Origin: Oligoflexia bacterium
Lineage (GTDB): Bacteria; Bdellovibrionota; UBA1018
NCBI GenBank assembly: GCA_903895855.1
Contig: CAITVN010000076.1
Coordinates: 7,124 to 71,123, forward strand
Reading direction: 5' to 3'
DNA: 64,000 nucleotides
Shown: positions 15,872-46,141 of the stretch, piece by piece
Position numbering within the stretch: the first letter of the stretch is position 1
Layout: each line of letters starts with the position of its first letter
Position numbers and translations under genes: made by a program
The notes under the pieces: generated by a model
Told to the model about the DNA's origin: nothing
The model's input: only the letters and a program-made list of their open reading frames with translations
The model's database searches: none

Positions 15872-16468
15872 CTATGAGTGCATGAAGTCGGCAAGGCCTT
15901 TGTAATTTCGTGTATTCCGTGCCTCATTCAAAGCTGAAATGTAGTTCTTTCTGCGATCGCTTGGGATATTTTTCAGCGCGGCTCCCCAGGTTGGAATGGC
16001 CCAGTTCTGCTTTTTACAGAAATGCTCGACTACTATTCTGCCAAACCGGCCGTTTCCGTTTACAAAGGGATGTATGGTTTCAATCTGCTCATGAAACCGT
16101 GCCGCTATTTCTTGTTCTGAGAAAGATCTATCCTTTAGCCAATAGGCGAGATCTCCTTCGAGCTGCCTAAGGGCTGTCCAAATTTGATGAGGTTGAAGAA
16201 AATACGGATTGTGCAATTCGTGAGTCCGGACTTGGCCAGCCCATTCCCAAACGTCATGAAAGAGCTTTTTATGAAGCTTGAGCCAAAAGTTGTGGGAGAT
16301 GCCGGCATCGTTCTGGTTCGCTAACCACATCATACCAACGGCAATATTTTGTTCCTCGTATTCATCCAGTTCTCTGACTGTCTGGATGTGTTTTGGTTTA
16401 AGTCCTTTTTGAAGTTCTGGAGGTAGGGGAGTTTGACCGTCGCGATCTTTAAATAAGAAATTACTCAC
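15872..16468 (-). CDS. Fic family protein (mobile mystery protein B type)
   Basis: Fic motif HPFVNGNGRFGRIVV (HPFxxGNGRxxR). 198 aa. The start overlaps the stop of the upstream HTH gene by 4 nt. Confidence 0.85.
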   Translation of the reverse strand: MSNFLFKDRDGQTPLPPELQKGLKPKHIQTVRELDEYEEQNIAVGMMWLANQNDAGISHNFWLKLHKKLFHDVWEWAGQVRTHELHNPYFLQPHQIWTALRQLEGDLAYWLKDRSFSEQEIAARFHEQIETIHPFVNGNGRFGRIVVEHFCKKQNWAIPTWGAALKNIPSDRRKNYISALNEARNTRNYKGLADFMHS

Positions 16469-16911
16469 CAGATGTCACCTTTCTTCAGGAGCTTGTTGGC
16501 CAGAAGTTCTATTCGTTCTTGCATGGATTGCTCGACGCGCTGGTCTTCTAACGTCATGTGTACGTCTGCAGATGCCAAGGTGCGCTTCGCCTTTTCTCGT
16601 GCCGCATGTTTCATAACCTCTTCGAGGTCGGTCTTAGAAACGAACGCATAGACAAATTCGCATTCCATGGCGTTGGCCATTTTCTTGAGGGTTGCGATTG
16701 AGATTCGACCGGCAGCCTCGCTACGTTCGGCTTGCGCTATAGATGGCAGCGAAAGCTTGGTTCTTTCTGCCAGCTGTTTGAGTGTCATGCCAAGTGAGTT
16801 GCGAATATAGCGTATCCACCCAGGCCGCACTTTGGTGTCTGGGATTATCTTTCTGATGGCTTTCAATCGGCGGTTCGCCTGGGCGATGGTGAGTGAGTCT
16901 TGTGGTTTCAT
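16465..16911 (-). CDS. XRE-type HTH protein (mobile mystery protein A type), probable partner/antitoxin of the Fic protein
   Basis: HTH segment LGMTLKQLAERTKLSLPSIAQAERSE. The gene is translationally coupled to the Fic gene. Confidence 0.75.
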   Translation of the reverse strand: MKPQDSLTIAQANRRLKAIRKIIPDTKVRPGWIRYIRNSLGMTLKQLAERTKLSLPSIAQAERSEAAGRISIATLKKMANAMECEFVYAFVSKTDLEEVMKHAAREKAKRTLASADVHMTLEDQRVEQSMQERIELLANKLLKKGDIW

Positions 16912-24540: not shown

Positions 24541-27281
24541 TGCCCCAGTTGCTCTTCAATTTTTTTGAATGCGGCGCCCAGCCCCTTGGCGTTGGTGCCA
24601 CCGGCTTGAGCAAAGTCAGGTTTTCCGCCGCCTTTGCCATCAATGAGCGCTGCCGCTTGTCGAATCAGTGCGCCAGAGTCCCATTTTTTAGGTGACGACG
24701 GGCCAACTCCCACGACAAGAGAAACCTTGCCAGAGTCAGGTTCAATCATGCTGAGAACAACTACTGCGTCTGGAGCCTTTTGTTTCAATCGGTCGCAAAG
24801 ATCACGCAATTTTTTTAACCCCTGGGCGTCGGGTTGGCATTCGCCACAGATCAGTCGAGTGCCCCCAATGAGCTTTGATGCGGCGAGTAGGGTATCGACT
24901 TCTGATCCGGCGGCTTTTGACTGCCACTGTTCAAGCTGGCGCTTGAGGTCTTTTTCGTGCGCAGTCATTTTTTCGAGTTTCGCCGAAATATCTTCAACTG
25001 AGCTGGCTTTCAGGCGATCTCTTAAACGGTCAATTTCTAAACTTCTTTCATTGAAAAATACGAAGGCACCCTTTGAGGTGAGTGCGGTTAAGCGGCGCAC
25101 GCCGGCTGCGATGCCAGTTTCGCTGGTAATTTTGACCAAATGAATGTCGCTGGCTTGGTCGACATGGGTACCGCCACAGAGTTCAACAGAAAAATCGCCG
25201 ACCGAAATCACACGTACTGAGTCACCGTATTTTTCACCGAAAAAGGCGATGGCTCCAGCTTCAATGGCTTTTTCTTTAGCGAGCACTTGTTTTTTGACAG
25301 GGGCGCCGGCCCAGACGCGCTCATTCACGAGAGCCTCAACTTGCGCCAGCTCTTCGGCAGAAAGAGCTTGAAAATGGCTAAAATCAAATCGAAGTAGGTC
25401 GGCGCTTACCATTGATCCGGCTTGTTTCACGTGCTTGCCGAGCACTTCTCGCAAAGCCCAATGAAGCAAGTGAGTGGCGGTGTGATTTCTCGCGGTGAGG
25501 GCCCGCAACTCTTTGTCGGTCTCTTGGTCGCAGGTGTCGCCAGTATTCAAGACGCCTTTAATGGGTCGAAGGTGGCACACAATGAGGTCAGGGGTTGGCC
25601 GCTGCACATCGATCACCTCTGCTTCAAAACCGTGGGCGGTTTTGATTCGACCTCGGTCACCGACTTGACCGCCGCTTTCACCGTAGAAAGGGGTTTTGTT
25701 GAAAACTGCCTCAATAATTTGCCCCTTTTCTTGGCTGTCTGCCGATGCCGCTAAACTTGGGGTCTGGTAGGTGGTGATTTTTTTGAGATCGGTTTCTGAT
25801 TGGGCTAAGATGGCAACACACTTGCCAATGTCGTGTTGTTTTTCGTAGCCCGTGAATTCAGGCAACGTACCGGCTTGTTTGAGTTCAGCCGCGAGATCAA
25901 AGTACACCTTATCAACGGTGCCTTGGCCTGAACCCTTCCAGTGCTTACGGCTTTCTGAGCGTTGACGATCCATCGCCCTTTCAAAGCCCGCTTCGTCGAT
26001 GGTCAAGCCCTTTTCTTGGCAGATCACTCGCGTCAGGTCGAGCGGAAATCCGTAGGTGTCGTAGAGTTTGAATGCGCTTTCGCCAGAAAATAGTTTATTT
26101 CCGCTCGGTAATTTAGCCGCTTCTTCATCAAGAAGCAAAAGGCCACGCTCGAGTGTTTTGAAAAATTGTTCTTCTTCGGCCAGTACTGCTCGCTCAAGGA
26201 ATGCTCGTTTTTCGGCCAGGTCAGGATAGGCTGCCTTCATTTGGTCAATCACAAATCCAGTTGTTTTATGTAAGAATGGCCCAGTAAAACCGAGTTTCTT
26301 GCCGTGGCGAATGGCTCGACGCATGATTCGGCGAAGTACGTAGCCTCTGCCCTCATTTGAGGGCATGACGCCGTCTGCAATTAAGAAAGCAGTGGCTCTA
26401 GAGTGGTCGGCGATGACTCTGAATGAAGCTTTGAGTTCACCAGAATAAGTTTGGCCCGAAAGTGCCTGGATTTTAGCAATGATGTCTGCAAAACCATCGG
26501 TGTCGTAATTGGTTTCAGATTCTTGCAGAATCGACGCAATTCGTTCTAGGCCTGCGCCGGTATCAACGCTGGGTTTGGGTAGTGGGTTGAGCTTTCCATC
26601 AGCCGAACGCTCGTATTGCATGAACACGAGATTCCAAAATTCCATGTAACGATCGCAATCACAACCCATCGCGCAAGTGGGTTTTTGGCAACTATACTGA
26701 GCCCCACGATCAATAAAAATTTCACTGCAAGGTCCGCAAGGGCCCGTGTCGCCCATCGACCAAAAATTGTCTTTCTCGCCAAAACGGTAAATGCGATCTT
26801 TCGGTACCCCTTCTTGTTTGTGCCAAATTTCGGCTGCTTCATCGTCAGTTTCGAAAACGGTTACATACAAGCGATCTTTGGGTAGTTTGAGTTCTTGTGT
26901 GACGAACTCCCAGGCGTATTTGATGGCTTCTTTTTTGAAATAGTCTCCGAACGAAAAATTTCCGAGCATTTCAAAAAAAGTGTGGTGTCTTGCGGTGAAA
27001 CCGACGTTTTCGAGGTCATTGTGCTTTCCGCCAGCTCTGACGCACTTTTGTGAAGAAACGGCGCGAGTATAGGCTCTTTTTTCTTTTCCCAAGAAACAAT
27101 CTTTAAATTGATTCATACCGGCATTGGTAAAAAGTAGAGAGGGGTCATTTTGTGGTACAAGCGATGAGCTTTCAACGATAGTATGGCCTTGGCGCTGAAA
27201 ATAATTGAGAAATCGCGTTCGAATTTCTGCAGTGCTGATGCTTATTTGAGGAACTCTCGATGAAAAATTTGATGTCGACAT
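24537..27281 (-). CDS. alaS: alanine--tRNA ligase
   Basis: 914 aa. N-terminal AEIRTRFLNYFQRQGH, FTNAGMNQFK, and class II core motifs. The editing-domain motifs HTATHLLH and CGGTHV are present, as is the C-terminal DHHA1-like GGGKPDFAQAGG. Confidence 0.95.
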   Translation of the reverse strand: MSTSNFSSRVPQISISTAEIRTRFLNYFQRQGHTIVESSSLVPQNDPSLLFTNAGMNQFKDCFLGKEKRAYTRAVSSQKCVRAGGKHNDLENVGFTARHHTFFEMLGNFSFGDYFKKEAIKYAWEFVTQELKLPKDRLYVTVFETDDEAAEIWHKQEGVPKDRIYRFGEKDNFWSMGDTGPCGPCSEIFIDRGAQYSCQKPTCAMGCDCDRYMEFWNLVFMQYERSADGKLNPLPKPSVDTGAGLERIASILQESETNYDTDGFADIIAKIQALSGQTYSGELKASFRVIADHSRATAFLIADGVMPSNEGRGYVLRRIMRRAIRHGKKLGFTGPFLHKTTGFVIDQMKAAYPDLAEKRAFLERAVLAEEEQFFKTLERGLLLLDEEAAKLPSGNKLFSGESAFKLYDTYGFPLDLTRVICQEKGLTIDEAGFERAMDRQRSESRKHWKGSGQGTVDKVYFDLAAELKQAGTLPEFTGYEKQHDIGKCVAILAQSETDLKKITTYQTPSLAASADSQEKGQIIEAVFNKTPFYGESGGQVGDRGRIKTAHGFEAEVIDVQRPTPDLIVCHLRPIKGVLNTGDTCDQETDKELRALTARNHTATHLLHWALREVLGKHVKQAGSMVSADLLRFDFSHFQALSAEELAQVEALVNERVWAGAPVKKQVLAKEKAIEAGAIAFFGEKYGDSVRVISVGDFSVELCGGTHVDQASDIHLVKITSETGIAAGVRRLTALTSKGAFVFFNERSLEIDRLRDRLKASSVEDISAKLEKMTAHEKDLKRQLEQWQSKAAGSEVDTLLAASKLIGGTRLICGECQPDAQGLKKLRDLCDRLKQKAPDAVVVLSMIEPDSGKVSLVVGVGPSSPKKWDSGALIRQAAALIDGKGGGKPDFAQAGGTNAKGLGAAFKKIEEQLGQ

Positions 27282-28699
27282 GGTTTTCGCCCTTTGAACC
27301 CGTTTTACCGAGGCTTCGCGCTTTCATCAATCGAATAGCGCGGCCGGCAATCACTTTAGTCTTTGTCGCCACCTGGTTAAGTTTGACCGCTCACGAATCT
27401 ACGGCTTGGAGCTTACATTACCTCATCACTGATCAGTCGCTTACAGAATTTCAATCGCCTTCACTTAATTTGGCAGAAGTGACCGTTGTAAAGCCTTTTG
27501 ATGAGTTTCTTAAGAGCTCTCCGCAAGATCTGAAACTCGTTTTCGATCGCTTTTATGACTGGCTCGATTCGAGGCCCCTGAAACGCTACAAGAGGCAGAC
27601 CTTTGATGCCGCACACCCGACCCAAGCAGAGTTTCTCAAGGCGGCCAGACTGAATCCCAAAACACAATTGAAGCTCGTGACCCGAGTGCTGCCGAGTGAG
27701 CCGCAAAACTCCAAAGAGATACCGGGGGCGTTGCATCAGGTGGTTGGGGCTTCGAAGACTGAAAATCCTGAGTTTGAGTACCGATTTGCTGAAGTTCAAA
27801 AGAATCAAACGGTGAGTGTGCGTTCAGAATTGATTACTTTTTGTGACGAGCCAGATTGGGGAATGGATCAAGACCTTTTTCAAATTGCCGAATATGGTTA
27901 CGGAAAAATTCCTTACGGAGGTGAAACCGGCATACCGAGTCAGGCGCCTTTTCACATGCTTTTTTTGACTGAAAATTTTATTGTAAAATTTGCGGCCCCT
28001 GAGGCTCTTGAAGGAATGGGTAGAGAGCGAGTTGAACTTTTTTCAAGGCTCTCTCAGTTCGCATTTGCCCACAATGAGCGCTACTGGGGTTTTCGTTTTG
28101 CCGGTTGGGCTTTACACTACCTGCAAGACTTAGGGCAGCCTTATCACTCGAGAGCGATGCCTCACTGGACGATCACAGACTACTTAAAATTTGCGGTATC
28201 GTCAGAAAAAGAGAAAATAAAAAAAGACGCGACACAGCTCGTAAAAAACCGGCATTTTGCTTATGAAGATCTGGTGGCTCATGCGCTACAGGCAGCCTAC
28301 TTCAGCGCAGGCGAGTTTGAAAAGGCGTTGGCGGTTTCAACCCGGGCCGAGGCTAAAGATTTTTCGGTAAACCCAGGGCCTTCAGAAAAACAATCGCTTG
28401 CAGTCAGTTTGGTTGAAATCATGTCTCGCACAGCAGGAGCTCACTCGCATGTGATTGATGCCGTCTTAGTCGATACCCTAGGACAAAAATACACGAATGA
28501 CCCTGCCTATGATTTGCAGACAGATAAAGACTATCAAATCAAGACGCTGCTACCTCGCTTAGATCAGAAAAAATTGAATCATCTACTGCAAGAGACTCAG
28601 GTTGATTTTTCGCGAGTCGGCGCAATTACTAGGGCTTGGGTCGAGTCTTTGGTGAGCTTTTCGGGTGCCGCTTCATCAAATTCTCGTTCAGATAAATAG
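27260..28699 (+). CDS. secreted protein, possible zinc-dependent phospholipase C / P1-nuclease fold
   Basis: A signal-like segment ITLVFVATWLSLTAHESTA is followed by W. Later HYLQDLGQPYHS resembles the metal-binding helix of the PLC/P1 family. The start is uncertain: both candidate ATGs (27260, 27272) overlap the divergent alaS start codon at 27279-27281. Confidence 0.45.
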   Translation: MKNLMSTWFSPFEPVLPRLRAFINRIARPAITLVFVATWLSLTAHESTAWSLHYLITDQSLTEFQSPSLNLAEVTVVKPFDEFLKSSPQDLKLVFDRFYDWLDSRPLKRYKRQTFDAAHPTQAEFLKAARLNPKTQLKLVTRVLPSEPQNSKEIPGALHQVVGASKTENPEFEYRFAEVQKNQTVSVRSELITFCDEPDWGMDQDLFQIAEYGYGKIPYGGETGIPSQAPFHMLFLTENFIVKFAAPEALEGMGRERVELFSRLSQFAFAHNERYWGFRFAGWALHYLQDLGQPYHSRAMPHWTITDYLKFAVSSEKEKIKKDATQLVKNRHFAYEDLVAHALQAAYFSAGEFEKALAVSTRAEAKDFSVNPGPSEKQSLAVSLVEIMSRTAGAHSHVIDAVLVDTLGQKYTNDPAYDLQTDKDYQIKTLLPRLDQKKLNHLLQETQVDFSRVGAITRAWVESLVSFSGAASSNSRSDK

Positions 28700-28874
28700 G
28701 TACCAAAATCGGACACCAAAAGAGGTTTCTTTGTTCATTCAGTACTTTTATCGAGTCAGTGAGCTAAATTGTCTCTGCGGTGGTGCCAAAATAAAACTAC
28801 CTTGATAAAACTTTCGCCGCTAAAATCCTTCTGCGTTCTTGCATCTACCGCAGTTTTGTTGTTCAACTGTGGTT

Positions 28875-30677
28875 ATGGCAAATTACTATACTGATTCAGC
28901 TGAATGGAAATATCATTTCAAAAATTCAATCAACTGGGATGCGATTCTACCGCTTTATTACCCTACTTTTCCGACCGCCGATGGATTTCAAAATAGAGAT
29001 GAAGTGTTGCAGTTTTTAGAAGAATTACTGACCACGACTGGTAAGTGGGCGGCTGAATCACTAGCGCCTAGATCAAAAGAACTCGACAAACAAGGTGCTG
29101 GCACGCTCTTGAATGGGGTGTTCACACCGTCAGAGGCTTTGAATAAAACCTACCAAGAAGCTAAAGAGCTCGATTTGTTTGGGCTGTGCATGGCCCCCCA
29201 CCATGGTGGCATGGGCGTTCCGACGATTGTGGGCCTTCTTGCGCTCGAGCAAATTTCAAAAACCTGCGTCTCGACCATGAGCCAACTGGGCTTTTTTACC
29301 AGCATTGCCGACATGATTGAACGATTCTGCGACAAAGATATTCAAGATAAATACATACCCATGATTCGTAACGGTGAAATCAGCGGCTGTATGTGCATGA
29401 CTGAGCCCGATGCCGGTTCAGATGTGGGTTCGTTGCGTACGACTGCAAAAAAACAGCCTGACGGGTCGTACTTAGTTAATGGCGTGAAAATTTTCATCAC
29501 CAACGGCGGCGGTGGTCTCGCCTTCGTGCTGGGTCGAATCGACGGGGCGCCAAAAGGTCTTGAAGGGTTGTCGCTGTTTTTCATAGAGCAGTGGCCCAAT
29601 GCTGATCGAAGTGCGAAGCCGAACTATTTAGTCACTAAGCTTGAAGAAAAAATGGGCATGCACGGTTCGGCAACTTGCGAACTCGTTTTTGAGAATTCAA
29701 AGGCTCGGTTAGTCGGTGGCGAGAACGAAGGCTTCAAGGTCATGCTACATTTGATGAACGAGGCCAGAATCTGTGTGGGCTTGCAAGGTCTAGCAATTAC
29801 CGAAGGCGCTCTCGCGGCTGCGAGAACTTATGCCGAAGGCCGTCAGCAGTTTGGTAAACCTTTGATGGAGTTGCCTTTGTTTAAGCGCAATTTTAACGAG
29901 TGGGAAACTGAGCTCGATGCGTTCAGAGCGCTCATGGCTGACACCTTTACTTATTTTGATATCTACACTCGCCTGGATTTGAAGAAGCGAAGAACTGATG
30001 ATTTGACGGCAGACGAAGTCAAGCTTCAGCAAAAAGCCGGAAGACGAGTGAGAAGGCGAACTCCGTTAGTAAAATACTACGGCGCCGAGATGTCGGCTAC
30101 GTTAACGCAACGAGCGATTCAAGCGCTCGGTGGTTACGGCTACATGGCTGAATATGAAGTCGAGCGTTTTCATCGCGATTGTTTCGGGCCGTTGTTATAT
30201 GAAGGCACTTCACAAATTCAAGCCCTCATGTCGATGAAAGACCTCGTGAAGTTCATGATGAAAGAACCCGCTCGCTTCATTCAAAGTATTGTGGGTAACC
30301 ACCCGTTGACGACGATTGGCGACTCTTCGGTGAAAAAAGCGCTGACGAGTTCACTTTATGAATACCGAAAGCACGTCACCATGCTCGTGGTTCGCTGCTT
30401 TAGACCTGATTTGCAGTTGAGTGAGATGAATTTCACGCAAACACTTGGCCAGCTAAAATCGATCATTCGCGGTGATTTTTGGCAAGAAGAGGGTCGATTT
30501 GATAAATTAATGACCCACGCTGAAACCATGTGCCAGGCTCTTTCATACATTGAAACGCTGAAGGTCTTGGCTAAGCACGCTGCAAAAGACAGTTCAAGAG
30601 TGGCGCTGTTTGATCGTTATCATAAGCTCATTCAACCACGTTTTGCTGCAATTTTCGCTGACTGGAAACTCGGATAG
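28875..30677 (+). CDS. acyl-CoA dehydrogenase, long form
   Basis: ISGCMCMTEPDAGSDVGS, FITNGGG, LGGYGYMAEYEVERFHRD and YEGTSQIQ. The start is placed at the ATG at 28875 (MANYYTD). Confidence 0.85.
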   Translation: MANYYTDSAEWKYHFKNSINWDAILPLYYPTFPTADGFQNRDEVLQFLEELLTTTGKWAAESLAPRSKELDKQGAGTLLNGVFTPSEALNKTYQEAKELDLFGLCMAPHHGGMGVPTIVGLLALEQISKTCVSTMSQLGFFTSIADMIERFCDKDIQDKYIPMIRNGEISGCMCMTEPDAGSDVGSLRTTAKKQPDGSYLVNGVKIFITNGGGGLAFVLGRIDGAPKGLEGLSLFFIEQWPNADRSAKPNYLVTKLEEKMGMHGSATCELVFENSKARLVGGENEGFKVMLHLMNEARICVGLQGLAITEGALAAARTYAEGRQQFGKPLMELPLFKRNFNEWETELDAFRALMADTFTYFDIYTRLDLKKRRTDDLTADEVKLQQKAGRRVRRRTPLVKYYGAEMSATLTQRAIQALGGYGYMAEYEVERFHRDCFGPLLYEGTSQIQALMSMKDLVKFMMKEPARFIQSIVGNHPLTTIGDSSVKKALTSSLYEYRKHVTMLVVRCFRPDLQLSEMNFTQTLGQLKSIIRGDFWQEEGRFDKLMTHAETMCQALSYIETLKVLAKHAAKDSSRVALFDRYHKLIQPRFAAIFADWKLG

Positions 30678-30720
30678 GAATGGGGTGCGACTGCGGTGTT
30701 CGAGAAGAGCCTGCTTTCGT

Positions 30721-30990
30721 GCGGCTCTTGCTGACCTGAGGATCAATGAAACAATGTCCGCAGACACCCTTTCTTGATCTTTTTTGGTTTTAATTGGGCT
30801 ACCAAACTCAAACTAGTTTTGAGGCCTCCCGCAAGCGTGACGCGTTCGCGCCGTAGGCGCGATGCGGGCGAGGCACGGATGCCGCGCCGAGAAAATGAGT
30901 TTGAGTTTGGTAGCCCAATTAAAACCAAAAATATCACTATGGGTGGCGAGGACTTTGTTTCATTGATCCTCAGGTCAGCAAGAGCGCCGC
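30721..30990. repeat. nested-hairpin intergenic element, copy E1
   Basis: The outer helix 30724-30754 pairs with 30955-30985 (31/31 bp). The inner helix 30780-30814 pairs with 30898-30931 (34 bp). The motifs TGTCCGCAG (30755-30763) and GGCGAGGAC (30945-30953) and the apical GCGAGGCACGGATGCCG are shared with E2 and E3. Confidence 0.85.
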
Positions 30991-30997
30991 AGTGGCC

Positions 30998-32314
30998 TTA
31001 TCGATAAGTGCTCTGGTGAAATAGGCAGTTCCAGAGGGTTTTCGCTTTGAGCGGAATATTGGGGTATTTCGGTGGCGTGAAGTCGGGGTGTTCGAAGTCA
31101 AACATATCGGCCATCGAGTTGGCGTTAGCGTCGCGCCGACTGAGCGCAGGAATATTGTACTTGTCTTCGATGAATCGCAAAATCGAGGTGTGGTCGTAGG
31201 TGGTGTGTGAGACGAAGTGGCGCTTAGCGTACGGTGAAATGACGAGAGCCGGAACTCTAAATCCGAGGCGCTCAAAGCCTTCTTGTTTGTTTTCGACGTT
31301 GGGTAAAATTTCATCGGGGGCACACGCTTTTGGCGGCGCCACGTGATCATATCCCCCGTCGCCTTCGTCGTAGCTGAGAAAAACGGCTGAGTTTTTCCAT
31401 GAAGCGCTTTTGCTGAGGGCTTTGAGGCGAGTGGCAAGTTGCCGCTGGTTAATGTCAAAGACAAACGGTGGGTGTTCTTCTCCAAAAATGCTCGAATTTT
31501 CGACAAAAACCACTTGGGCAAGTTTGTTGTGTTTTGCGTGATAGTCAAAGAGTTTGGCTGGTTTAAAGTGTTTGATGTTTTTCAAATAAAATTTTTCATA
31601 AAACTGAATGATCGAGACGTCTGAGATGTAGAATGTCCAGCTCACGCCGGCTTGAGTGAGTGATTCAAAAATGGTGGGTTCTGACCAACCGCCGTGAAAG
31701 AGATCTGAGTTGGTATTTGACGTTTGCCCTGCTGAAGTGCCCGCATAGGCGTATCGACGATTGGGTTGAGTGGCGCCCATCACTGACGCGAAGTAACGGT
31801 CACCCACTGAGAACTGATTAGCCAGAGCATACATTAAGGGGTAATCGCGTTCGTCATAGTAGCCCATCGCGCGATCACCGTTGAGTTTTGACGACGTATT
31901 TGAGATCACAAACTGGTCATTTTTTCCTAAATTGTAGGCTTCGTGTGAACCATCCCAGCCGTGATTCATGCTCTTGATGCAGTGGTTGGTGAGGTGAAAG
32001 GGTACAACGGGAGTGCCATCGGCCGCGGGGTTATACAGATCGGCCGTGATGCCATCGACTTCGTTTCCGTAGAATTCTGGTTTATTTAATTTTCCAAATA
32101 CATTATCGAAACTATGGTTTTCCATCATGAAGACGATGGTGTGTTCGATGGGGTTAGTGTGATCAGGTAGTCCGATGGGATCGTTGGGCCTGGCAAGAGA
32201 CCCTTTGGGTTGAGAGCAGTTGGGTTCTTCGGCCTGCAAACTAGAACAGCACAATAGACTCGCTGCGCTTAAGATCGATAAAAAGCTGACGGTATTTGCC
32301 TTCATGTATCCCAC
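30998..32314 (-). CDS. phosphoesterase-family protein (non-hemolytic phospholipase C / acid phosphatase type)
   Basis: 438 aa with a signal peptide. IEHTIVFMMENHSFDNVFG, SWTFYISD, LSYDEGDGGYDHV and the RVPALVISPY pattern are typical of the phosphoesterase family. Confidence 0.8.
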   Translation of the reverse strand: MGYMKANTVSFLSILSAASLLCCSSLQAEEPNCSQPKGSLARPNDPIGLPDHTNPIEHTIVFMMENHSFDNVFGKLNKPEFYGNEVDGITADLYNPAADGTPVVPFHLTNHCIKSMNHGWDGSHEAYNLGKNDQFVISNTSSKLNGDRAMGYYDERDYPLMYALANQFSVGDRYFASVMGATQPNRRYAYAGTSAGQTSNTNSDLFHGGWSEPTIFESLTQAGVSWTFYISDVSIIQFYEKFYLKNIKHFKPAKLFDYHAKHNKLAQVVFVENSSIFGEEHPPFVFDINQRQLATRLKALSKSASWKNSAVFLSYDEGDGGYDHVAPPKACAPDEILPNVENKQEGFERLGFRVPALVISPYAKRHFVSHTTYDHTSILRFIEDKYNIPALSRRDANANSMADMFDFEHPDFTPPKYPNIPLKAKTLWNCLFHQSTYR

Positions 32315-32413: not shown

Positions 32414-32884
32414 TTAGAGCCCGACTCTGACTTCAAAGCCGATGAAATTTTCAGGAACTTTTGCAATTGAACCTTGAAACTCAGGACCAGGCTTTACAGG
32501 CTTTTCAATGGCCTGAAGTTCAATGCTCTTACCTGTTTTCGAGCTTTCGAGAAGAGTGATCGCCATTTTTTCGGGTTTAGTGCCCTTCAAGGTGATGACA
32601 TAAACATTGATCTGACCAGTGGCGCGGTCAACTTGAACTTCGAGTTCTTCTTCGTGGCCTTTGGCTCCGCGTTTGACGAGCCAGCCACCGTGGGGACCCA
32701 GATTTTTTGTCGCGTTGGGTTCGATCAAGGCTTTGAATGGTTTTTTCTTTTGGCTAGTGCCTTGGTTGGCCGCTGGTTGTGAAGCTTGCGGTGTTTCGGC
32801 TAGTGCCATGAGTTCACTTGACAGCAGTACTAATGATGAAGCGAGAACAATGATTGAAACCGTTACTGCATTTAAATTTTTCAT
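32414..32884 (-). CDS. hypothetical secreted protein
   Basis: 156 aa with signal peptide MKNLNAVTVSIIVLASSLVLLSSELMALA. No motif recognised. Confidence 0.6.
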   Translation of the reverse strand: MKNLNAVTVSIIVLASSLVLLSSELMALAETPQASQPAANQGTSQKKKPFKALIEPNATKNLGPHGGWLVKRGAKGHEEELEVQVDRATGQINVYVITLKGTKPEKMAITLLESSKTGKSIELQAIEKPVKPGPEFQGSIAKVPENFIGFEVRVGL

Positions 32885-33034: not shown

Positions 33035-36000
33035 ATGCAGAATTTTCAGTCATTCACCCTCTCTCTCATCGACTACTGGACAAAACAAGGCTGTCTATGG
33101 ACCCAGCCTTACGATCACCCCATGGGTGCAGGTACGTTTCATCCCCACACGTTTTTGAAGGGCCTGGGGCCAGAACCGTGGAGAAGCGTTTACGTTCAGC
33201 CGTGTCGAAGACCCGTTGACGGGCGTTACGGTGAAAACCCTTATCGTTTTCAACACTACTATCAACTGCAGGTGTTACTCAAACCCGCACCCTCGAATAT
33301 TATCGATGTGTTTCTAAAATCTCTTGAGCACGTGGGCATTCGACTTGAAGAAAATGACATTTCATTACTTGAAGACGATTGGAAAGGCCCGACTCTCGGA
33401 GCCTGGGGGCTGGGGTGGGAAGTTCGGGCCAACGGGCAGGAAGTCACTCAGTTCACTTATTTTCAGCAGTTGGGTGGCCTTGATCTTGATGTCATTTCTG
33501 GCGAGATCACTTACGGCTTAGAGCGGCTGTACTTGTATCGTTACGGCCTAAAGAGTGCCCTTGATATTCCGTACAACGATCAGTTTACTTACGGCGATAT
33601 TTATAAACAAAATGAATTTGAGTTTTCTCATTTTAATTTCAAGCAAGCGACGGTGAGTGAACTCTTAGAAACGTTCTCTCGATCAGAAGAAAACGTGAAA
33701 CGCTTGTGTGAGCAAAATCTGGTGCTTCCGGCTTACGATTATGTTTTACAGGCATCGCATGCGTTTAATTTACTCGACGCGAGAGGTGCGATCTCGGTCG
33801 CAGAACGCCAACGCTACATTGGGCGGGTGCGTGATTGTGCGCGCCTTTGCGCCCAAGTGTACCGTGCTGAACGAGAAGCGCGTGGGTTTCCGCTGATGAA
33901 TCGGGTGGCAAGTCAGTCAGTAGTCGGGGGGGCTGCACCGATGGGTTCGGGGCTTCAGGTGTCGAGTGCGAGTTCTTCGCGCGATTGGACTGCGCCCACA
34001 GAGGTGGGGGCTAAACCCGTTGATGTTTTACTCGAGCTTGGGGTTGAAGAGATTCCGCCAGCCTTTCAGGTTGCTGCCCAAGAGCAAATTGAGTCGTCAC
34101 TAAAGGCGTGGAGAGAAAAAACGGCAAAAACCTTTGCTGGTAGCGAAGTGTTTCTATCGCAATTGCGTGCGACAAAATTTCAGGTGCTCACATCGGCAAG
34201 ACGCATCTCGCTTTTATGCGAAGGCCTACCTTGTCGCGAGCCTGATTTGAAAAAAGAAAATTGGGGGCCAGCTGAGAGAATTGCCAAGGCTGCTGATGGC
34301 AGTTTTAGTCAAGCCGCATTGGGGTTTGCAAAAAAATCAGGAATCGACCCGAGCGCGTTGCAGTTTAAATCTAAGAGTGATGGAACCTTTCTTTACTTCG
34401 AAAAAAATGAACCCGGTCGAGATTTTCCGAAACAGGTGGCCGAAGAGTTCTTCACTTGGGTTGAGGCGATTGAGTCTGGGCTAAAGATGAAGTGGTCGGT
34501 TCCTGGTTTAGCCGATTTCTTTTCTTTTGTGCGCCCCGTTCGCACAATCTGCGCGATGGTGGGTAACCAGAGGTTAGCAGTCACTCGATTTGGGGTTGAA
34601 TCCGGCAAAACCACTTTTGGGCAGCGAGTTCTCTCGCCTCAGTCGATCGAACTAAAAGGGGCTGCTGAGTATGAGCATGCCCTGACTCAAGCTGGGGTGA
34701 TGGTCGACACGAAGAAGCGTCAGGCGCTCATCTTAGATACCGCTCGTAGCCTAGCTGAATCAAAGAAAGGAATGCTCGGGGCATTTTCTGAAAAATTAGC
34801 TGAAAAGACCGCAGGACTGACCGAAAGCCCCGTCGTGTTTTTGGGCAAAATGGACTCTAAGTATTTGCGGCTTCCGGCTCGTTTGATTTCAAGTGCTTTG
34901 CGTGAGCACATGAATTATTTTTCGGTGCTAGCGCCAGATGGGCTAACCACTTTGCCTTACTATATCGGTGTGGCTGGGTATCAGTGCACGCAGTTTGAGA
35001 AGATGGTCGAAGCGACTTCGGTCGTCGTAACCGGACGGCTCGAAGATGGTGCGTTTTATTTTGACCAAGACCTTCAAACATCTGTCGAAGAATTTCATGA
35101 CCGCCTCGGAAGCCAAACGTTTCAAGCGGGAATGGGAACCCTCAAGCAAAAAGCCCAGCGGGTTTCGCTTTTGGCTTCACGTTTAGCTAAAGTTTGGCCA
35201 AGAAATGGTGCCGACTCTTCGGTAGATTTCGCAGAAATCGCCGGGCTTGCGGGGTTGTATTCAAAGGCCGATCTGAGGTCGGGTTGCGTTCAAGAGTTTC
35301 CTGACGAAATGCAAGGAGTGATGGGCGGAATTTTGATCAACCACCAAAAACCTTTTGGTGACAAGTCAGCTCGAATAGCTGAGGCAGTCTCAGAGCACTA
35401 TTCGCCCGCAGGGGCAGCCGATTCATTGCCAAAATCGCAATTAGGCAAGCTCGTTTCTTTGGCAGATAAATTAGATTCTTTGGTATTTTTGTTAGGCTCT
35501 GGAAATGAAGTGAAAGGCAATAAAGATCCTTTCGGATTACGTCGAATGGCCGTGGGTGTGGTTCGAATTCTAGGGTTGGACGGTGAGCTAGATACCGCGT
35601 CGGTTGGATTTTCTGAGCTTTCGAGCTCAGCATTGGCCGTCATTGAAGGGCAGGGTTTTTCATTAGCAAAAGACACGTTAACAAAAGTGAATGAATTTCT
35701 TTTGGGTAGGGTCAAGGCCGCCTGGAAGAACGAATTCAATCCTGGCGCTATTGAAGCGGTCTCTAAGCGAATTGAAGCGCAGTCTATTGTGGTTTCAAGA
35801 AACCTCGTTCGTTCACTATCGAAGGCGCTTGAGTCGAAAACGAGTGGTCTTGCAGAGTCGTTAACCCCGTATAAAAGGTGTGTCTCTCTGACCGATCCGA
35901 TATTGGGTCGGGCGAGCGAGTTCGTGGTTGATGCGCAATTGATTGAACAGGCAGAAGAACGAGCACTTTTTGAAGTGGTGAAGCAAGTCGAACTGCGAGC

Positions 36001-36202
36001 AGAGCAGACTGTGCGAGACTTGAAGTTTGATGAGTACTTTGCCTTGCTCGCTTCAGTAGGCGCGCCGCTTGGACTATTTTTTGATAAGGTTTTAGTGAAC
36101 CACGATGATGTGAAATTGAAAAATAACCGGTTGGCGCTTTTGCTCAAGATTAGAAAACTCTATGACCACGTGGCTGATTTCTCGAAGATTCAACTGAAGT
36201 AG
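33035..36202 (+). CDS. glyQS: glycine--tRNA ligase, fused alpha and beta subunits
   Basis: The N-terminal ~290 aa is GlyQ-like (FQSFTLSLIDYWTKQGC, YVQPCRRPVDGRYGENPYRFQHYYQLQV, TYFQQLGG). A linker of ~45 aa follows. The rest is GlyS-like (LLELGVEEIPPAF ... DPFGLRR). Total length is 1055 aa in one frame. Confidence 0.9.
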   Translation: MQNFQSFTLSLIDYWTKQGCLWTQPYDHPMGAGTFHPHTFLKGLGPEPWRSVYVQPCRRPVDGRYGENPYRFQHYYQLQVLLKPAPSNIIDVFLKSLEHVGIRLEENDISLLEDDWKGPTLGAWGLGWEVRANGQEVTQFTYFQQLGGLDLDVISGEITYGLERLYLYRYGLKSALDIPYNDQFTYGDIYKQNEFEFSHFNFKQATVSELLETFSRSEENVKRLCEQNLVLPAYDYVLQASHAFNLLDARGAISVAERQRYIGRVRDCARLCAQVYRAEREARGFPLMNRVASQSVVGGAAPMGSGLQVSSASSSRDWTAPTEVGAKPVDVLLELGVEEIPPAFQVAAQEQIESSLKAWREKTAKTFAGSEVFLSQLRATKFQVLTSARRISLLCEGLPCREPDLKKENWGPAERIAKAADGSFSQAALGFAKKSGIDPSALQFKSKSDGTFLYFEKNEPGRDFPKQVAEEFFTWVEAIESGLKMKWSVPGLADFFSFVRPVRTICAMVGNQRLAVTRFGVESGKTTFGQRVLSPQSIELKGAAEYEHALTQAGVMVDTKKRQALILDTARSLAESKKGMLGAFSEKLAEKTAGLTESPVVFLGKMDSKYLRLPARLISSALREHMNYFSVLAPDGLTTLPYYIGVAGYQCTQFEKMVEATSVVVTGRLEDGAFYFDQDLQTSVEEFHDRLGSQTFQAGMGTLKQKAQRVSLLASRLAKVWPRNGADSSVDFAEIAGLAGLYSKADLRSGCVQEFPDEMQGVMGGILINHQKPFGDKSARIAEAVSEHYSPAGAADSLPKSQLGKLVSLADKLDSLVFLLGSGNEVKGNKDPFGLRRMAVGVVRILGLDGELDTASVGFSELSSSALAVIEGQGFSLAKDTLTKVNEFLLGRVKAAWKNEFNPGAIEAVSKRIEAQSIVVSRNLVRSLSKALESKTSGLAESLTPYKRCVSLTDPILGRASEFVVDAQLIEQAEERALFEVVKQVELRAEQTVRDLKFDEYFALLASVGAPLGLFFDKVLVNHDDVKLKNNRLALLLKIRKLYDHVADFSKIQLK

Positions 36203-36209
36203 ATTTCAG

Positions 36210-36534
36210 CAACTGCAGTTGACTGAACCTAAACTAATTGAGAATATTTTCTCCGGTTTCTTTGGCCTTCGTAAAAAGACATTCCGCAGCCGCAGTATCG
36301 GCATCTCTATTTTTTAAGAGTAGACTGCAGTTATCCCCTTATTTTTACTCCTCAAACATCCTATTTTCTTGCTTTCGGCATCCTGCCTCGCAAGAGTCGC
36401 AAAAATAAGGGGATAACTGCAGTCTACTCTTAAAAAATACTCGCCGATACAAAAGCGAGGACGTCTTTTTACGAAGGCCAAAGAAACCGGGGAAAATATT
36501 CTCAACAGTAGCCAGGTTAGTTCAACTGCAGTTG
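36210..36534. repeat. nested-hairpin intergenic element, copy E2
   Basis: Helix 36240-36280 pairs with 36463-36503 (41 bp, one T:G pair). Helix 36309-36346 pairs with 36401-36438 (38/38). The apical segment is 54 nt (36347-36400). The 12-nt palindrome CAACTGCAGTTG occurs at both ends. Confidence 0.9.
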
Positions 36535-37778: not shown

Positions 37779-39155
37779 TTACCAAAAAGATATCGGTTTG
37801 GCGGGATAGGTTTGAGTCAGTGCACGTTTGTGAATTTCCTGAATGTGACCAGAAAGTGAACACATGAGGTTAGTTTGGTCTAAATTGTAGTAGACAAAGC
37901 CCGGCAGGGTTGAATCCCAGAACTCGACATAACAATCGACAAAGCCCATGGTGTGTCCAATTTCGTGAGCCAGAGTGGCTTGGTTGATCTTTAGCGAATG
38001 GTCTGCATTTTTGTCGAGGGTGATCTGATTTCCACCAATGGCAGATGTTTTTGTGAGTGCACCTGGTATTGAGGTAAAATTGATTACGGCACTTTGCTTG
38101 AAGGTGTCATAAAATAGCGGGTTCACAGTGAGTGTCTCTAGTTTGTTCCAGTAAGTTGCGATGCTTCGGCTAACTGAATTTGTGAGGGTTTCTGAAACAT
38201 CTGCAAACGGAATTGTCAACAGAGTCGTGTTGTCGGCATTTATAGCAGCAGCAATGATGGGATTCTTAACTGAAATTTGAAAAAGCGATTGGTATTTTTT
38301 TTCGCCGCGCAACAGCACGGTGTGCACCCAGTTCACCAAGCCTTCAATACTCTGATTTTCGATGAGTTGTTGAATTTCGAGATCACAAACGTGTTCAGTG
38401 GTGACCCCCAGTGAACACGCATCGAAGGCTAGTTCTCGGGCATGTATCGCTGCAGGGCTGTCAAACGCAATCTGATTGATGAGGTCAGAGAACAGGTGTT
38501 GTTGTTCGGCTCTGAGTTTTAACCATGGTCTGATGTCACGGGTGGCTGCGCCCATGGCAGCCTTGATGGGGAGGTTGCTGATGAAGCGCGAGGCTTCGCT
38601 ATAGATGGCTTTGCATTGGGTCAAAAATTCTTTGGCTGTCTTTGTTGGAATTTTTACAAATTGTTGAGAGGTAAGTTTTTCGATTTCTGGAATGCTAAGT
38701 GCCATGATTGCGTTCAGTTCTGTGGGCACCGCCTTCGAGTTGAGCTGAAATCGTTGAAGGATGTCGGCCTCTACAAAAAATCTTGGATTTTCTGGCGTAA
38801 AATCATGAAAGGTAGCGGGGTCAGAGTCGGTCATTTGCTTATCGGTGGTTAGGCGGTTACTGATGGCTAGGCATCGGCTTCCGGTTTCTACTATTTCAGC
38901 GAGGATTTTTGGCTTGCTCACGGTACCCTCGCGTGCCGCCGAGTTTAGAACTGGAAAAGCTGACGCTGAGCTCAAATACGAGATTTCACTGAGGTGTGGC
39001 GTGTGAAGTGGCGCGGTCAGTGAAACTGAGACCACGGCTTCAGCTACGTCAGGGGCGGTGGGCCCACACCCGACCACAAATTCAAGCGAGGAGAGTCCGA
39101 GGAGGGTCAGACCGAGAGCGATAGAGAGAGTGTGATGAAAAGTGAAACGTCTCAT
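37779..39155 (-). CDS. lipoprotein zinc metalloprotease (HExxH)
   Basis: Lipobox FVVGCG and zincin motif LAHEIGHTMGFVDCY near the C-terminus. The start is placed at the ATG at 39155 (MRRFTFHH). Confidence 0.65.
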   Translation of the reverse strand: MRRFTFHHTLSIALGLTLLGLSSLEFVVGCGPTAPDVAEAVVSVSLTAPLHTPHLSEISYLSSASAFPVLNSAAREGTVSKPKILAEIVETGSRCLAISNRLTTDKQMTDSDPATFHDFTPENPRFFVEADILQRFQLNSKAVPTELNAIMALSIPEIEKLTSQQFVKIPTKTAKEFLTQCKAIYSEASRFISNLPIKAAMGAATRDIRPWLKLRAEQQHLFSDLINQIAFDSPAAIHARELAFDACSLGVTTEHVCDLEIQQLIENQSIEGLVNWVHTVLLRGEKKYQSLFQISVKNPIIAAAINADNTTLLTIPFADVSETLTNSVSRSIATYWNKLETLTVNPLFYDTFKQSAVINFTSIPGALTKTSAIGGNQITLDKNADHSLKINQATLAHEIGHTMGFVDCYVEFWDSTLPGFVYYNLDQTNLMCSLSGHIQEIHKRALTQTYPAKPISFW

Positions 39156-39238
39156 TCCTGGGTTCTCTATCACCGATGGCGCACTGAGTCAATTTTGAGT
39201 GATCAGTATCTCATGGAGCGTTTAACTATCGATAAATA

Positions 39239-41079: not shown

Positions 41080-43509
41080 GTGATGAAAAATTTCGAACTC
41101 GATACGTCTGAAGGCTCGGTTACACTCAATCAGAATAGTAAGTTGCTGGTCTATGCGCTCAATGCCAACTCCCGGCTCGACCCCGACGAGATGCAACTGG
41201 TGCTTCAGGCTTTTTCGACACTCTACAAGAGCAAGTCGACTTATAAAGAGCACCCTCTTCAAAACGAGAAATTCTCTATTGTTCTTGATTTAAAGGCTGC
41301 GGGCACCTCTATTGCTCTTGAATCCATTAGCATGCTTTTGAATTCCGAACTCATTTCTGAAATCAAGAAAGTTGCGTGTGTCACGAGCGTGGTTGAAACC
41401 CATGCACTTTGGCGTCTTGGGGTCATTTCAAGCGCCGAAGCAAAGAAATTTAGAAGTTTTAGTTCGCTTGCCCGAGCGACGGCTTGGATCGCGCTAAAGA
41501 ACTTCGAGGCAAACGAATGTGGCCATTTAGTTTCAATCGTTGAACAAAAACTTTTGACGATCAGAGTCTATCGAAACGAAATTTTCGAGATTGAGTGGAA
41601 ACCGTTAAGTGATTCGGTCACTTTAGAGGTAGCCAAAGAAATTGTTCATGAATTGAAACTACTTCGGAATCGATTTCAATTTACTCATTCTCCATCGATG
41701 CTGATTATTCTGGCCGAAGGAGTTCATGTCGGCGCCGATGTGAGAAACTATTTTGCTCAGATTGATAAAGAATTTGGAGTCAAAAGAATCGCCATGGTAG
41801 TGCCTGCTCGATTCGTCTCGGTGGTTGCAAATGCCATTCAATATTTCACACGCACTTCGGTCAAAACCCGAATCTATGCTAATCGGTTGTCGGCCAAAAA
41901 ATGGCTTGATAGAGCCGCCCACTCTGAAGATAATCGATCGGTAGAAGTCGATGATGAAAGCCTCGAATTGTGGGAAAAAACCACAAGAAACGTCAATGCG
42001 TTCGCGCATCACGTTTCAAATTTTCAGCTCTTTGTTCCTACCGCTATCGGGTTAACAGCGGTCTTGGTCGGTCTCCCGATTCCGTTCGCTTTGTTTGGTG
42101 ATCATGCATTGACTGCGATTGAATCGAGAGGGCTCGCTTATCTATTTTTGATCGCAACGTCTCTGGCAGTCGTGGCCATTTTTCGATACCAGGGCAATCA
42201 GCAGAGGCTGAAAAAATCAATTGATCAGTGGCGAAGAGATTCTCTGTTTAAGTTTGAAAAAGTCATCAAGGTTCTTGGACAATTCACCGCCGGAAACTTT
42301 TCAATGGACGAGTTGGTTGATGGGACCGAGAAAGCGGCAAAAATTCGAGATGAATACGACCAAATATTGCTGCATGCGAGGGTTCTAGGTTCAGAGTTGA
42401 GGCACTCGACCGTGAGTTCAGACTATTTCAAATCCGTGACTGACTCGCTACCTGAATCTTTGATTATTCTCGATAATACGTTTAGAATTTCACACCTCAA
42501 CGAAACAGCTCTAGATATTATTGGTATGTCACGCATTGATTTGGTTCGAAAAGAGGCGACCCTACTGTTTAGAAACCTTTCGAAGGGCGACTTGATCGAC
42601 CGGCTCGAAAAACAAGGTGAGGCTTTTGAGTGCGAGCTCAATTCGATGACTGAAAACTTTGTGCCTGTGATGGTTCGTGCTTCGCCTTTACAAGTCGATG
42701 GAGTGCATCACGGATTTTTGATTGTGGCTTCAGATTTACGTGAGCAGAAAGAGCGCGAAAAAGAGCGCGAAAAACTCAATGAAAAACTTTATCACACGGG
42801 CAAGCTCGCGTCGCTGGGCACCATTTCAGTTGGAATTGCACACGAGTTGAATAATCCACTTGCCGTCATTACCACCGCCGAGTCGGTTTTGCGAAAATCA
42901 CTCAAAGAACCTCAAGATTTGAAATTGCTCGGCATGATTCAAAAATCTGCTGACCGTCTTAAAAAGATCACCACTCACATGCGTGTTTTCGGAAGAAACG
43001 ACTCTTCGATGGAGCGTGAGGTGGTGACGATTCGTAAAGTGATCGACGATGCGATGATTTTCTTAGAAACACAGCTGCGAAATCGCAGCGTCAAAATTGA
43101 ACTCACCGTTCCTGAAAATCTTTGGGTGAACGTGAATTCAACCAGCATGGAAAGTGTTTTTCAGAACCTATTGTCAAATTCACGAGATGCGTTTGAAGAC
43201 TTGAAAGATGAGCGACCTCGACTGATTAAGATCTTTGCCGAAGAGGCTGCAGGGTTTGTGCAGATTAGTTACACTGATAATGCAGGTGGTATGCCTGAGG
43301 CGGTGAAGGAAAAGATGATGGATCCTTTCTTTACGACCAAACCGAAGGGCAAAGGAACAGGCCTTGGTATGTCGATTATCTATGGCACGGTTTCTAATCA
43401 CCAGGGCATGGTGACGATGGATTCAAGAGAAGGCGAAGGGGTGCAGTTTACGATTTTATTGCCGGCCGCCGACCAGACAGCGCTTCAAGAAGAAGATAAG
43501 GCGAGCTAA
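41080..43509 (+). CDS. sensor histidine kinase with PAS domain and long N-terminal region
   Basis: A PAS-like segment ([24 protein letters not shown]) is followed by the HisKA H-box [10 protein letters not shown]. HATPase motifs [10 protein letters not shown] and GTGLGMSI are present, with two TM helices mid-protein. Confidence 0.85.
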
Positions 43510-43955
43510 GTAGCTTCAAGCCCCGGATTCATGACGCGAGTGTAGAGCTCTACCATCTCGATCGTTTCGACAGCACCAATGTAGTCTGGCAAATCAGCAA
43601 AAAGGTGTTTCTCGTCTGGGTGAAAGGGCCAAGAAACCTGACCTGATGGCAAATTAACGACCACTATTGAGTCATCGGTCTTACCTACAGAGTAGCCCGA
43701 CTTTTCTGCAAGTTTGGCAATGAGGCTGGTGCAAGAATCTCGCTCTACCATCAGCGCGTCTTTGACTGCGAGCAACCTAGAATTTTCGCGAGCAAAAAGC
43801 TCGAGATTTTCTTCAAGAATTTTCAATTTTTGTTCAACGACGCGAGTATATTGCGAAGTTTCGAGTTGCAGCCGGTCGACCTCAGTCACCAGTTTTGCGA
43901 CTTCTTCGTGCGTGAACTGCCCTTTTACCTGCTCAACTTGATCGTTACCCATCAT
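43506..43955 (-). CDS. hypothetical coiled-coil protein
   Basis: 149-aa ORF with a coiled-coil N-terminal half. No motif recognised. The stop overlaps the kinase stop (convergent genes). Confidence 0.5.
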   Translation of the reverse strand: MMGNDQVEQVKGQFTHEEVAKLVTEVDRLQLETSQYTRVVEQKLKILEENLELFARENSRLLAVKDALMVERDSCTSLIAKLAEKSGYSVGKTDDSIVVVNLPSGQVSWPFHPDEKHLFADLPDYIGAVETIEMVELYTRVMNPGLEAT

Positions 43956-45760: not shown

Positions 45761-45802
45761 GACTCTTGAGTGATAACCTCGCATGCCCAATTGATTCTAA
45801 TT

Positions 45803-46087: not shown

Positions 46088-46141
46088 GTGATGACCAGTG
46101 CATAGGAAGTTAATCCACCAGACGAAAGGTAACTGAAAAAA

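Follow-up and report, generated by a model that had tools for sequence, protein, structure and literature searches.

Long intergenic quasi-palindromes in an uncultured Bdellovibrionota-like bacterium: an apparently low-copy family probably shaped by template switching

The origin and upkeep of long perfect stems is a recognized puzzle, to which template switching has been proposed as an answer (PMC8794818). Being a mutational process, template switching defines neither a family nor a function, but it leaves recognizable products: perfect stems, multi-base compensatory changes without intermediates, inverted loops, loop sequence copied into stems, and stem extension (Monttinen and Loytynoja 2022, PMC8794818). 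Here, we analyse an intergenic hairpin, E1, in a 64,000-nt stretch of an Oligoflexia bacterium assembly (GCA_903895855.1, contig CAITVN010000076.1, positions 7,124 to 71,123 of the forward strand; hereafter the window, numbered from its first letter), together with its paralogues E2 and E3 in the same window and E4 on other contigs from the same samples. Products of all these kinds recur in E1-E4, although the E stems (31-68 bp) and the inverted 83-nt apex of E1 are much larger than the ribosomal RNA cases, and the published events were read from reconstructed ancestors, whereas ours are read from paralogues (PMC8794818). On balance, we consider it probable that E1 belongs to a low-copy quasi-palindrome family in which template switching shaped the arms, an old and fixed rearrangement altered the E1 apex, and the apex is the part under selection.

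Several other kinds of hairpin resemble the E elements in part. REP/BIME/REPIN and ERIC sequences and miniature inverted-repeat transposable elements (MITEs) are likewise non-coding, multi-copy hairpins that lie at the ends of genes, frequently where two genes converge, and that occur in either orientation; these families, however, share a whole-element consensus that includes the stems and are usually high-copy, whereas in the E family only loops and junctions are conserved and the copy number looks low. The E elements have no conserved 5′ GTAG, no conserved stems and no conserved terminal inverted repeat, no flanking direct repeats were present in the sequences inspected, and neither a Y1 transposase nor a RAYT was found in the window. 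Integron attC sites, which function as folded single strands, also combine short conserved motifs and structural imperfections with otherwise freely varying imperfect palindromes, but they measure 57-141 bp, carry RYYYAAC/GTTRRRY boxes, stand in cassette arrays and depend on IntI; the E elements are 186-325 bp long, lack such boxes at their stem bases, have housekeeping neighbours, and no integrase was found with them. No reverse transcriptase of the kind that accompanies a retron msr/msd was found beside the elements or elsewhere in the window. Rho-independent (bidirectional) terminators share with the E elements a position directly past stop codons and between convergent genes, and a very stable hairpin. 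Unlike terminators, the E elements have no U-tract after their stems, their T-run and A-run are part of the inner stem and are ordered the wrong way round (5′ T-run, 3′ A-run), their helices total 70-110 bp, and their apex is a conserved asymmetric 50-nt module.

The E1 hairpin and its inverted core

E1 (30724-30985) nearly fills the intergenic space at 30678-30997 between the convergent genes for an acyl-CoA dehydrogenase (28839-30677, plus strand) and a phosphoesterase (30998-32314, minus strand), where a first-pass annotation of this DNA had placed it. It is a two-tier hairpin with an outer helix of 31/31 bp, an inner helix of 34/34 bp and an apex of 83 nt (30815-30897), and the 281 nt at 30715-30995 fold at -174 kcal/mol (z = -18 against shuffles). 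The outer helix, perfect between 30724-30754 and 30955-30985 as annotated, can be prolonged to 36 nt at 97% pairing, with one T.T mismatch (left arm 30724-30759, right arm 30950-30985), and a weak outermost tier of 15 nt pairs 30687-30701 with 30982-30996 at 80%. The inner helix is indeed perfect over 34 bp, but its annotated start, 30780, was off by one: the correct arms are 30781-30814 and 30898-30931, which extend to 40 nt at 95% (30781-30820 with 30892-30931), the left one beginning with a T-run as in E2-E4. All remaining coordinates and strings given earlier for E1 proved correct, including both junction motifs, which match exactly. The 5′ motif TGTCCGCAG (30755-30763, plus strand; family consensus ATTCCGCAG) sets the orientation of the flanks as plus and is followed by a middle helix, CACCC at 30765-30769 with GGGTG at 30941-30945; the 3′ motif GGCGAGGAC (30945-30953, plus strand) has the same sequence as that of E3.

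The complete core of E1 lies opposite to these junction motifs when compared with E2 and E3, as the first-pass annotation had claimed. It occupies 30864-30905 on the minus strand (CTCAAAC-TC-ATTTTCT-CGGCG-CGGCATCCGTGCC-TCGCC-CGC), and strand-specific comparisons bear the conflict out: in local alignments with the cores of E2 and E3, the E1 apex scores z about 7 on the minus strand (equalled by 0 of 2000 shuffles) as against 1.2-1.9 on the plus strand, while for the two junction motifs it is the plus strand that matches (z 3.2 and 6.4), with no match on the minus strand. Consistently with this, GCGAGG occurs in E1 as two direct copies (30868 and 30946), whereas in E2 and E3 the copies are mutually inverted. 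If members of the family are expected to have core and 5′ junction motif on one strand, E1 departs from that expectation.

E1 is nevertheless confirmed as a member of the family, genuine but divergent, as had been proposed. A core pattern specifying 22 bases (TTTTCT-N5-6-CGGCATCC-N0-1-TGCCTCGC) matches the window only in E1 (minus strand, 30868-30895), E2 (plus) and E3 (minus), with 0 matches expected by chance, and a covariance model trained only on E2 and E3 picks up E1 at 44.7 bits (E about 2e-9). These results, with the exact junction motifs in their right positions and the same geometry, make it hardly credible that E1 is an unrelated hairpin that has short GC-rich strings in common with the family by chance, even though its apex is GC-rich and folds barely beyond shuffles (z -0.6 to -2.3). 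An assembly error in the orientation of the apex is included in that low estimate; assemblers do struggle with E elements, but three assemblies with two contig-naming styles agree here, and arms of 34-40 bp are shorter than typical reads and final k-mers.

Inside the apex, divergence is extensive. About 23 core positions are retained, the closing stem of the small hairpin has co-varied (GGCG/CGCC instead of CTTGC/GCAAG), and the apex has grown to 83 nt, 29 nt more than in E2 and E3 (54 nt), through a GC-rich insert of about 36 nt (up to 80% GC). The insert is unique, which ruled it out as a repeated element. A central mini-palindrome, GCGCC-GTA-GGCGC (30848-30860), also unique in the window, stands close to the centre of symmetry of the hairpin as a whole. 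The 5′ segment of the core, CTCAAAC..ATTTT, is unpaired in E2 and E3; in E1 it is complementary at 12/14 positions to the opposite side of the apex and makes up the uppermost part of the inner stem, where the left arm (30807-30820, CTCAAAC-TA-GTTTT) is an inverted copy of it.

A second, partial core in the other orientation had also been proposed at 30823-30837, where the string GGCCTCCCGCAAGCG does sit. Taken together with the top of the stem, the left half of the apex, read on the plus strand, resembles the canonical core (z 4.5-4.65 in comparison with E2 and E3, 2.3 with E4) and looks like a core without its middle (CTCAAAC..GTTTT..GCCTCCCGCAAGCGTGAC, 30807-30841), in the orientation that the flanks predict. 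Taken alone, the proposed segment is not significant, since 137-329 of 2000 shuffles reach an equal score; much of the score of the left half comes from the shared stem top, and thus depends partly on stem pairing, and its independent part, GCCTCCCGCAAGCGTGAC against GCCTCGCAAGAGTCAC, is again not significant by itself. We therefore treat the second core as suggestive only.

The first-pass explanation for this arrangement, inversion or snap-back inverted duplication across the inner arms of 34-40 bp, remains the natural one. When the DNA is replicated, intramolecular template switching or conversion of one arm by the other would keep the arms of E elements complementary, and an event of the same type across the inner arms would have rearranged the E1 apex, either by simple inversion of the loop or by an inverted, head-to-head duplication of the core, after which the original was partly lost. 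Both routes yield products of the template-switch class, and the data do not separate them. Copying of loop into stem would then have paired the normally single-stranded 5′ segment of the core. Such a rearrangement would be old and fixed, the apex having afterwards diverged to its present reduced core and acquired its GC-rich insert. The conserved apex would be the selected part, bound by some protein or RNA in an RNA form or a single-stranded or cruciform DNA form, with the 40-bp helix serving as a spacer.

Shared anatomy and paired change in the stems

A scan of the whole window for long inverted repeats found such structures only at E1, E2 and E3. The latter two are canonical members in mutually reverse-complement orientation. 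E2 (36210-36534, plus strand) has three tiers: an outermost tier at 36210-36230/36514-36534, an outer stem at 36238-36280/36463-36505 with the 5′ and 3′ junction motifs at 36281-36289 and 36455-36462, and an inner stem at 36308-36346/36401-36439 that encloses the core at 36347-36400. E3 (45802-46086, minus strand) has its outer stem at 45802-45851/46037-46086, its inner stem at 45875-45914/45969-46008 and its core at 45915-45968, with the junction motifs, as reverse complements, at 46028-46036 (5′) and 45852-45859 (3′). The two apices of 54 nt are identical at 49/54 positions, and the two elements agree exactly in an 11-nt 5′ junction block (ATTCCGCAGCC), an 8-nt 3′ block (GCGAGGAC) and the 13-bp base of the inner stem (TATTTTTTAAGAG), while the similarity of their outer stems (43-50 bp) is at shuffle level (z about 0.8). 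E2 begins 8 nt past the stop codon of a fused glycyl-tRNA synthetase alpha+beta gene (1055 aa, 33035-36202). Its outermost tier includes a 12-nt palindrome, CAACTGCAGTTG; the palindromic octamer ACTGCAGT, with a PstI site at its centre, recurs in the E2 inner stem (36325-36332/36415-36422), and ACTGCGG is present in the weak outer tier of E1.

The fourth member was reached by an exhaustive protein search with the translation of an 88-aa open reading frame (ORF) called through E3. A second protein with the core peptide FCDSCEARCRKQEN came from contigs L163 and L164, which carry E4 (L163:9058-9243, equivalent to L164:4791-4976). E4 is a single hairpin with 68-bp arms and no outer stem; it lies between two co-directional genes, and its right arm reaches into the called 3′ end of one. 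The E4 apex shares about 90% identity with the cores of E2 and E3 and contains the same TTTTTTTAAGAG block, the inner stem measures about 41 bp, and the junction helix differs from the canonical form in that three imperfections, a U.G wobble, a bulged A and an A.C mismatch, have become Watson-Crick pairs. The two ORFs, P0121 (88 aa, window 45839-46105, plus strand) and P0122 (99 aa, L163:8943-9242), run straight across E3 and E4, respectively, and are almost certainly spurious, though now in public protein sets. About 70 nt past E4, 27 of 183 positions differ between L163:9313-9495 and L164:5046-5228, mostly with third-codon spacing, whereas the 5 kb on the opposite side of E4 hold only 2 differences between those samples; judged from these sequences, this looks like a recombination or allele boundary directly beside the element.

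The four elements follow one plan. Optional outer helices (21-50 bp) lead to a short, conserved and slightly imperfect junction helix (ATTCCGC/GCG-A-GGAC), a variable middle helix (5-16 bp), an inner helix of 39-41 bp that starts with a T-run (40, 39 and 40 nt in E1, E2 and E3, about 41 in E4), and an asymmetric apex of about 50-54 nt in which a single-stranded CCUCAAACAUC..UUUUCU is followed by a small bulged hairpin. The junction motif pair, (A/G)T(T/C)CCGCAG ... GCGAGGAC, stands at the inner end of the outer stem, with junction-to-junction gaps of 182, 165 and 167 nt in E1, E2 and E3. The elements begin 8-46 nt past a stop codon and nearly fill their intergenic spaces, between convergent genes at E1 and E2 and between co-directional genes at E3 and E4.

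The stems change in pairs. The consensus fold of E2 and E3 has 90 pairs, 24 of which have changed on both sides and still pair. With E4 added, from junction to junction, 94.2% of the cells of 57 predicted pairs are paired, against 83.3% after shuffling (0/500), and 19 of the 57 show two-sided change, against 7.4 in shuffles (0/500) and at most 7 when partners are slid by 1-3 columns. Among the 39 pairs of the inner stem in E2, E3 and E4, 19 are invariant and 16 have changed on both sides, with 0 one-sided changes; the seven long helices of E1-E3 contain 11 mismatches in 269 arm positions and are 96% Watson-Crick. RNA helices usually show many G.U pairs and one-sided changes. The pattern fits arm-to-arm copying, or strict Watson-Crick selection on both strands. 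The varying number of tiers, with an extra one in E2 and no outer stem in E4, also speaks for copying between arms. The absence of one-sided changes in the inner stem, the repaired junction of E4, the extra tier of E2 and the apex of E1 are all signatures of template switching, and the products expected of that class (perfect arms, two-sided changes, a perfected junction, an inverted apex) are all seen here, so that the reading of the E family as a quasi-palindromic intergenic hairpin shaped by template switching is supported as a history.

The earlier statement that the E1 helices are unrelated to those of E2 and E3 holds (z -1.1 to 1.8), as does the lack of likeness above shuffles among the outer arms of E1, E2 and E3; it needs one refinement for the family, in that the inner stems of E3 and E4 retain a common TCATTC...TTTTT stretch, which argues for descent with paired change rather than wholesale replacement. 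Since the cores of E2, E3 and E4 remain about 90% identical while the stems are saturated, the apex appears to be under purifying selection.

The same contrast between near-identical cores and unrelated stems could suggest that the core is a module that lands in, or converts, the loops of existing long hairpins in either direction, with E1 as an independent insertion, and the orientation of the elements is indeed random with respect to both flanking transcription and the replication strand (compare E3 with E4; the GC skew of L163 is -0.088). We find this improbable. Conserved blocks (junction motif, T-run/AAGAG base, core) alternate with variable ones and the inner stem keeps a constant length of 39-41 bp, which together fit one structured unit evolving in place; the residual similarity between the inner stems of E3 and E4 points the same way, the E1 core is far too diverged for a recent insertion, and neither a target duplication nor a mobility gene was seen.

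A conventional structured RNA (a small RNA or a 3′-untranslated-region element) under selection for pairing at the RNA level, of which E1 would be a dead copy with an inverted apex, would account for the strong covariation, for the conservation of the unpaired motifs, for the placement of every element shortly past a stop codon, and for transition mismatches that all read as G.U on the plus strand (5/5 are G.T, with 0 A.C). As an indicator of the functional strand the mismatches were set aside as uninformative, the G.T bias being confounded by leading-strand composition. A structured RNA of this kind seems unlikely to us, because no Rfam match, promoter or U-tract terminator accompanies the elements, because the mRNA-sense strand holds the reverse complement of the core at E3 and the core itself at E4, because near-absence of G.U pairs and an inner stem free of one-sided changes are unusual for RNA helices, and because a dead copy would hardly keep stems that are 96% paired.

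Orientation across assemblies and distribution of the family

The first-pass annotation had viewed the segment bracketed by the inner arms as dynamic DNA, able to invert. For inversion in the present we find no support: every assembly compared as DNA shows a single orientation, at the level of consensus sequences, which would mask minority orientations. E1 is 100% identical in three further assemblies, and identical sequences were found in one further contig for E2, three for E3 and two for E4. Five independent metagenome contigs break at the E3 arms: three end there (45845, 45849 and 46014) and two start there (near 45882 and 46015). Those that end within E3 have the orientation of the window, and one of the two that start there carries a partial ORF consistent with it. 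Indels between assemblies were ruled out as population variants, being scaffold N-gaps.

Invertons such as fimS and hin likewise have inverted repeats bracketing a segment that occurs in both orientations, which for the E family means among paralogues; they also have a nearby or dedicated recombinase, short arms, an internal promoter or coding end, and a mixed population, none of which was found for the E elements. That the apex of E1 and of other members flips in living populations through the inner arms, as a phase-variable switch, is accordingly very improbable in our judgement. Perfect inverted repeats of 34-40 bp do bracket the apex, paralogues do show both relative orientations, and the contig breaks at E3 could be read in its favour, but assemblers commonly break contigs at inverted repeats. 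Orientation and sequence of E1-E4 are constant across the assemblies, no recombinase, invertase, integrase, transposase, reverse transcriptase or defence gene was found among the genes of the 64-kb window, no promoter-like site lies within E1, and the strong divergence of the E1 apex implies a long independent evolution, and hence long residence, in one orientation. As far as consensus assemblies show, the description as dynamic DNA is thus valid only on evolutionary time.

Several points weigh against the history that we favour. Four members are known, and what counts as the canonical orientation rests on E2 and E3; the junction of E4 is symmetric and cannot be oriented, so the inversion may just as well have happened in the lineage leading to E2 and E3. 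The case for template switching is built from its products in paralogues and not from reconstructed ancestors. Near-perfect stems could also stem from strong selection for long double-stranded RNA or for folding of both strands, and the 5:0 excess of G.T over A.C mismatches fits selection on a plus-strand transcript, though it fits a G/T-rich leading-strand bias equally well. Finally, consensus assemblies would mask a minority orientation, and the five breaks at the E3 arms could hide heterogeneity.

Searches beyond the window returned little. Rfam gave 0 matches in the window at gathering thresholds and, at E-value thresholds for E1 and E2, only generic long-hairpin microRNA models that fell far below threshold. 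An exact scan of GTDB genomes with the core pattern gave 0 matches, and the 7 matches in JGI metagenomes and 53 in IMG/VR were dismissed as chance, all lacking flanking inverted repeats and junction motifs; the E4 core itself differs from the scan patterns at three required positions, which makes the negatives of exact scans weak. With blastn, E1, E2 and E3 had no phage match and E2 no plasmid match. Orthologous or neighbouring loci of the nearest relatives (50-64% protein identity; L064-L067, L102, L144, L146, L147) contained no comparable hairpins, nor did about 13 kb of this genome beyond the window, and model R1 had no match in either. Among about 15 billion predicted proteins, those from assemblies of this organism included, two ORFs with the core peptide were found in the exhaustive search, which reads one frame and sees only copies with a called ORF; a word-indexed search in four frames returned E3's own ORF only, and nothing for E1 peptides. 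Two such ORFs among so many proteins argue for a low copy number, and together the searches of Rfam, phages, plasmids and relatives argue for a family that is low-copy, lineage-restricted and previously undescribed, as far as sequence comparison can tell.

The host, which is uncultured, resembles Bdellovibrionota: the flanking enzyme has its nearest homologues at 60-64% identity, and homologues at 55-59% are named Bdellovibrionia, Bdellovibrionales and Bacteriovoracaceae. The neighbourhood is a housekeeping one, with fused GlyQS, AlaRS, RecA, SSB and ABC transporters, and five proteins encoded next to E elements (27260-28699, 32414-32884, 37779-39173, 43506-43955 and 46142-47482) have no match in Pfam, NCBIfam, PADLOC or PHROGs.

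Other repeats and gene clusters were noted in passing. Intergenic hairpins outside the E family include a 21-bp perfect stem downstream of recA (59198-59256) and a 17-bp stem beside the SSB gene (8504-8555), and this genome seems to have a preference for long hairpins where genes end. A Pseudobdellovibrionaceae metagenome-assembled genome carries another hairpin family (L102:5763-5833 and 14444-14525), with near-perfect stems of 33-36 bp and the signature AAAGGTA...TACCTTT. Perfect tandem repeats, GGTTGA ×10.5 (6536-6598) and CGTTGG ×8.7 (6696-6747), lie inside an ORF with a weak HNH_5 match (6280-7461), and the 8-nt repeat CCGCACGA ×8.4 lies in the intergenic space upstream of it (7587-7653), where it could act as a slippage-prone contingency site; contig L149 ends in the first array. 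A Fic/DOC and HTH_3 gene pair at 15872-16911 looks like a toxin-antitoxin system. Multihaem cytochrome c genes at 51722-57706 and 60910-63387 (Cytochrome_C7, Paired_CXXCH, MtrC-like), with NrfD-like and 4Fe-4S partners, suggest a respiratory versatility that is seemingly unusual in a Bdellovibrio-like lineage.

Possible function and significance

The conservation of a 50-nt apex at about 90% in three of the four members implies a function, and several roles can be narrowed. No promoter-like sites or U-tract terminators were found at the E elements; E1 has no terminator-like site, and E2 and E3 have only incidental sub-hairpins before the internal T-run. A role of the stems as guides or spacers was rejected on present data, the arms matching nothing in phages, and nothing above shuffles in about 77 kb of this genome. 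A landmark of the replication origin or terminus, or a fork trap, was likewise rejected, the GC skew being uniformly positive across the window. For a local trans-acting partner the window offered no candidate gene.

The best reading is a structure-presenting module, in which the apex would be recognized by a sequence-specific partner and the helices would act as spacers that template switching at replication maintains. Taken further, E elements might form a new functional module, an apex on a 40-bp "ruler" helix that some factor recognizes in either chromosomal orientation, with E1 still functional; we offer this tentatively and give it a small chance. In its working form it could be DNA, extruded as a single strand or as a cruciform and served by a hairpin enzyme of the Y1/HUH type, or else a processed double-stranded RNA, and template switching would keep, grow and occasionally flip the hairpin. 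The reverse-complemented core hairpin (GGC-AGGAU-GCC; in E1 GGCA-CGGA-UGCC) resembles an A(N)GGA binding hairpin and might conceivably be a site for CsrA/RsmE. Y1 enzymes take DNA hairpins as substrates, and on a contig from sample ERZ1426684 a 191-aa protein with a weak match to PF01797 Y1_Tnp (IS200/RAYT-like) is encoded 8-9.5 kb from E4. By analogy, this protein may be regarded as a candidate partner of the E elements. It is adjoined by a DDE_5 transposase, and a DDE gene is also present at L163:507-1934.

In practical terms, E hairpins fragment metagenome assemblies and spawn spurious database ORFs of 88 and 99 aa. Four paralogues in one genome, each with a different predicted template-switch signature, provide an unusually legible natural example of this process. 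If a binding partner of the apex were found, the E family would stand as a new structured element from a phylum that has received little study.

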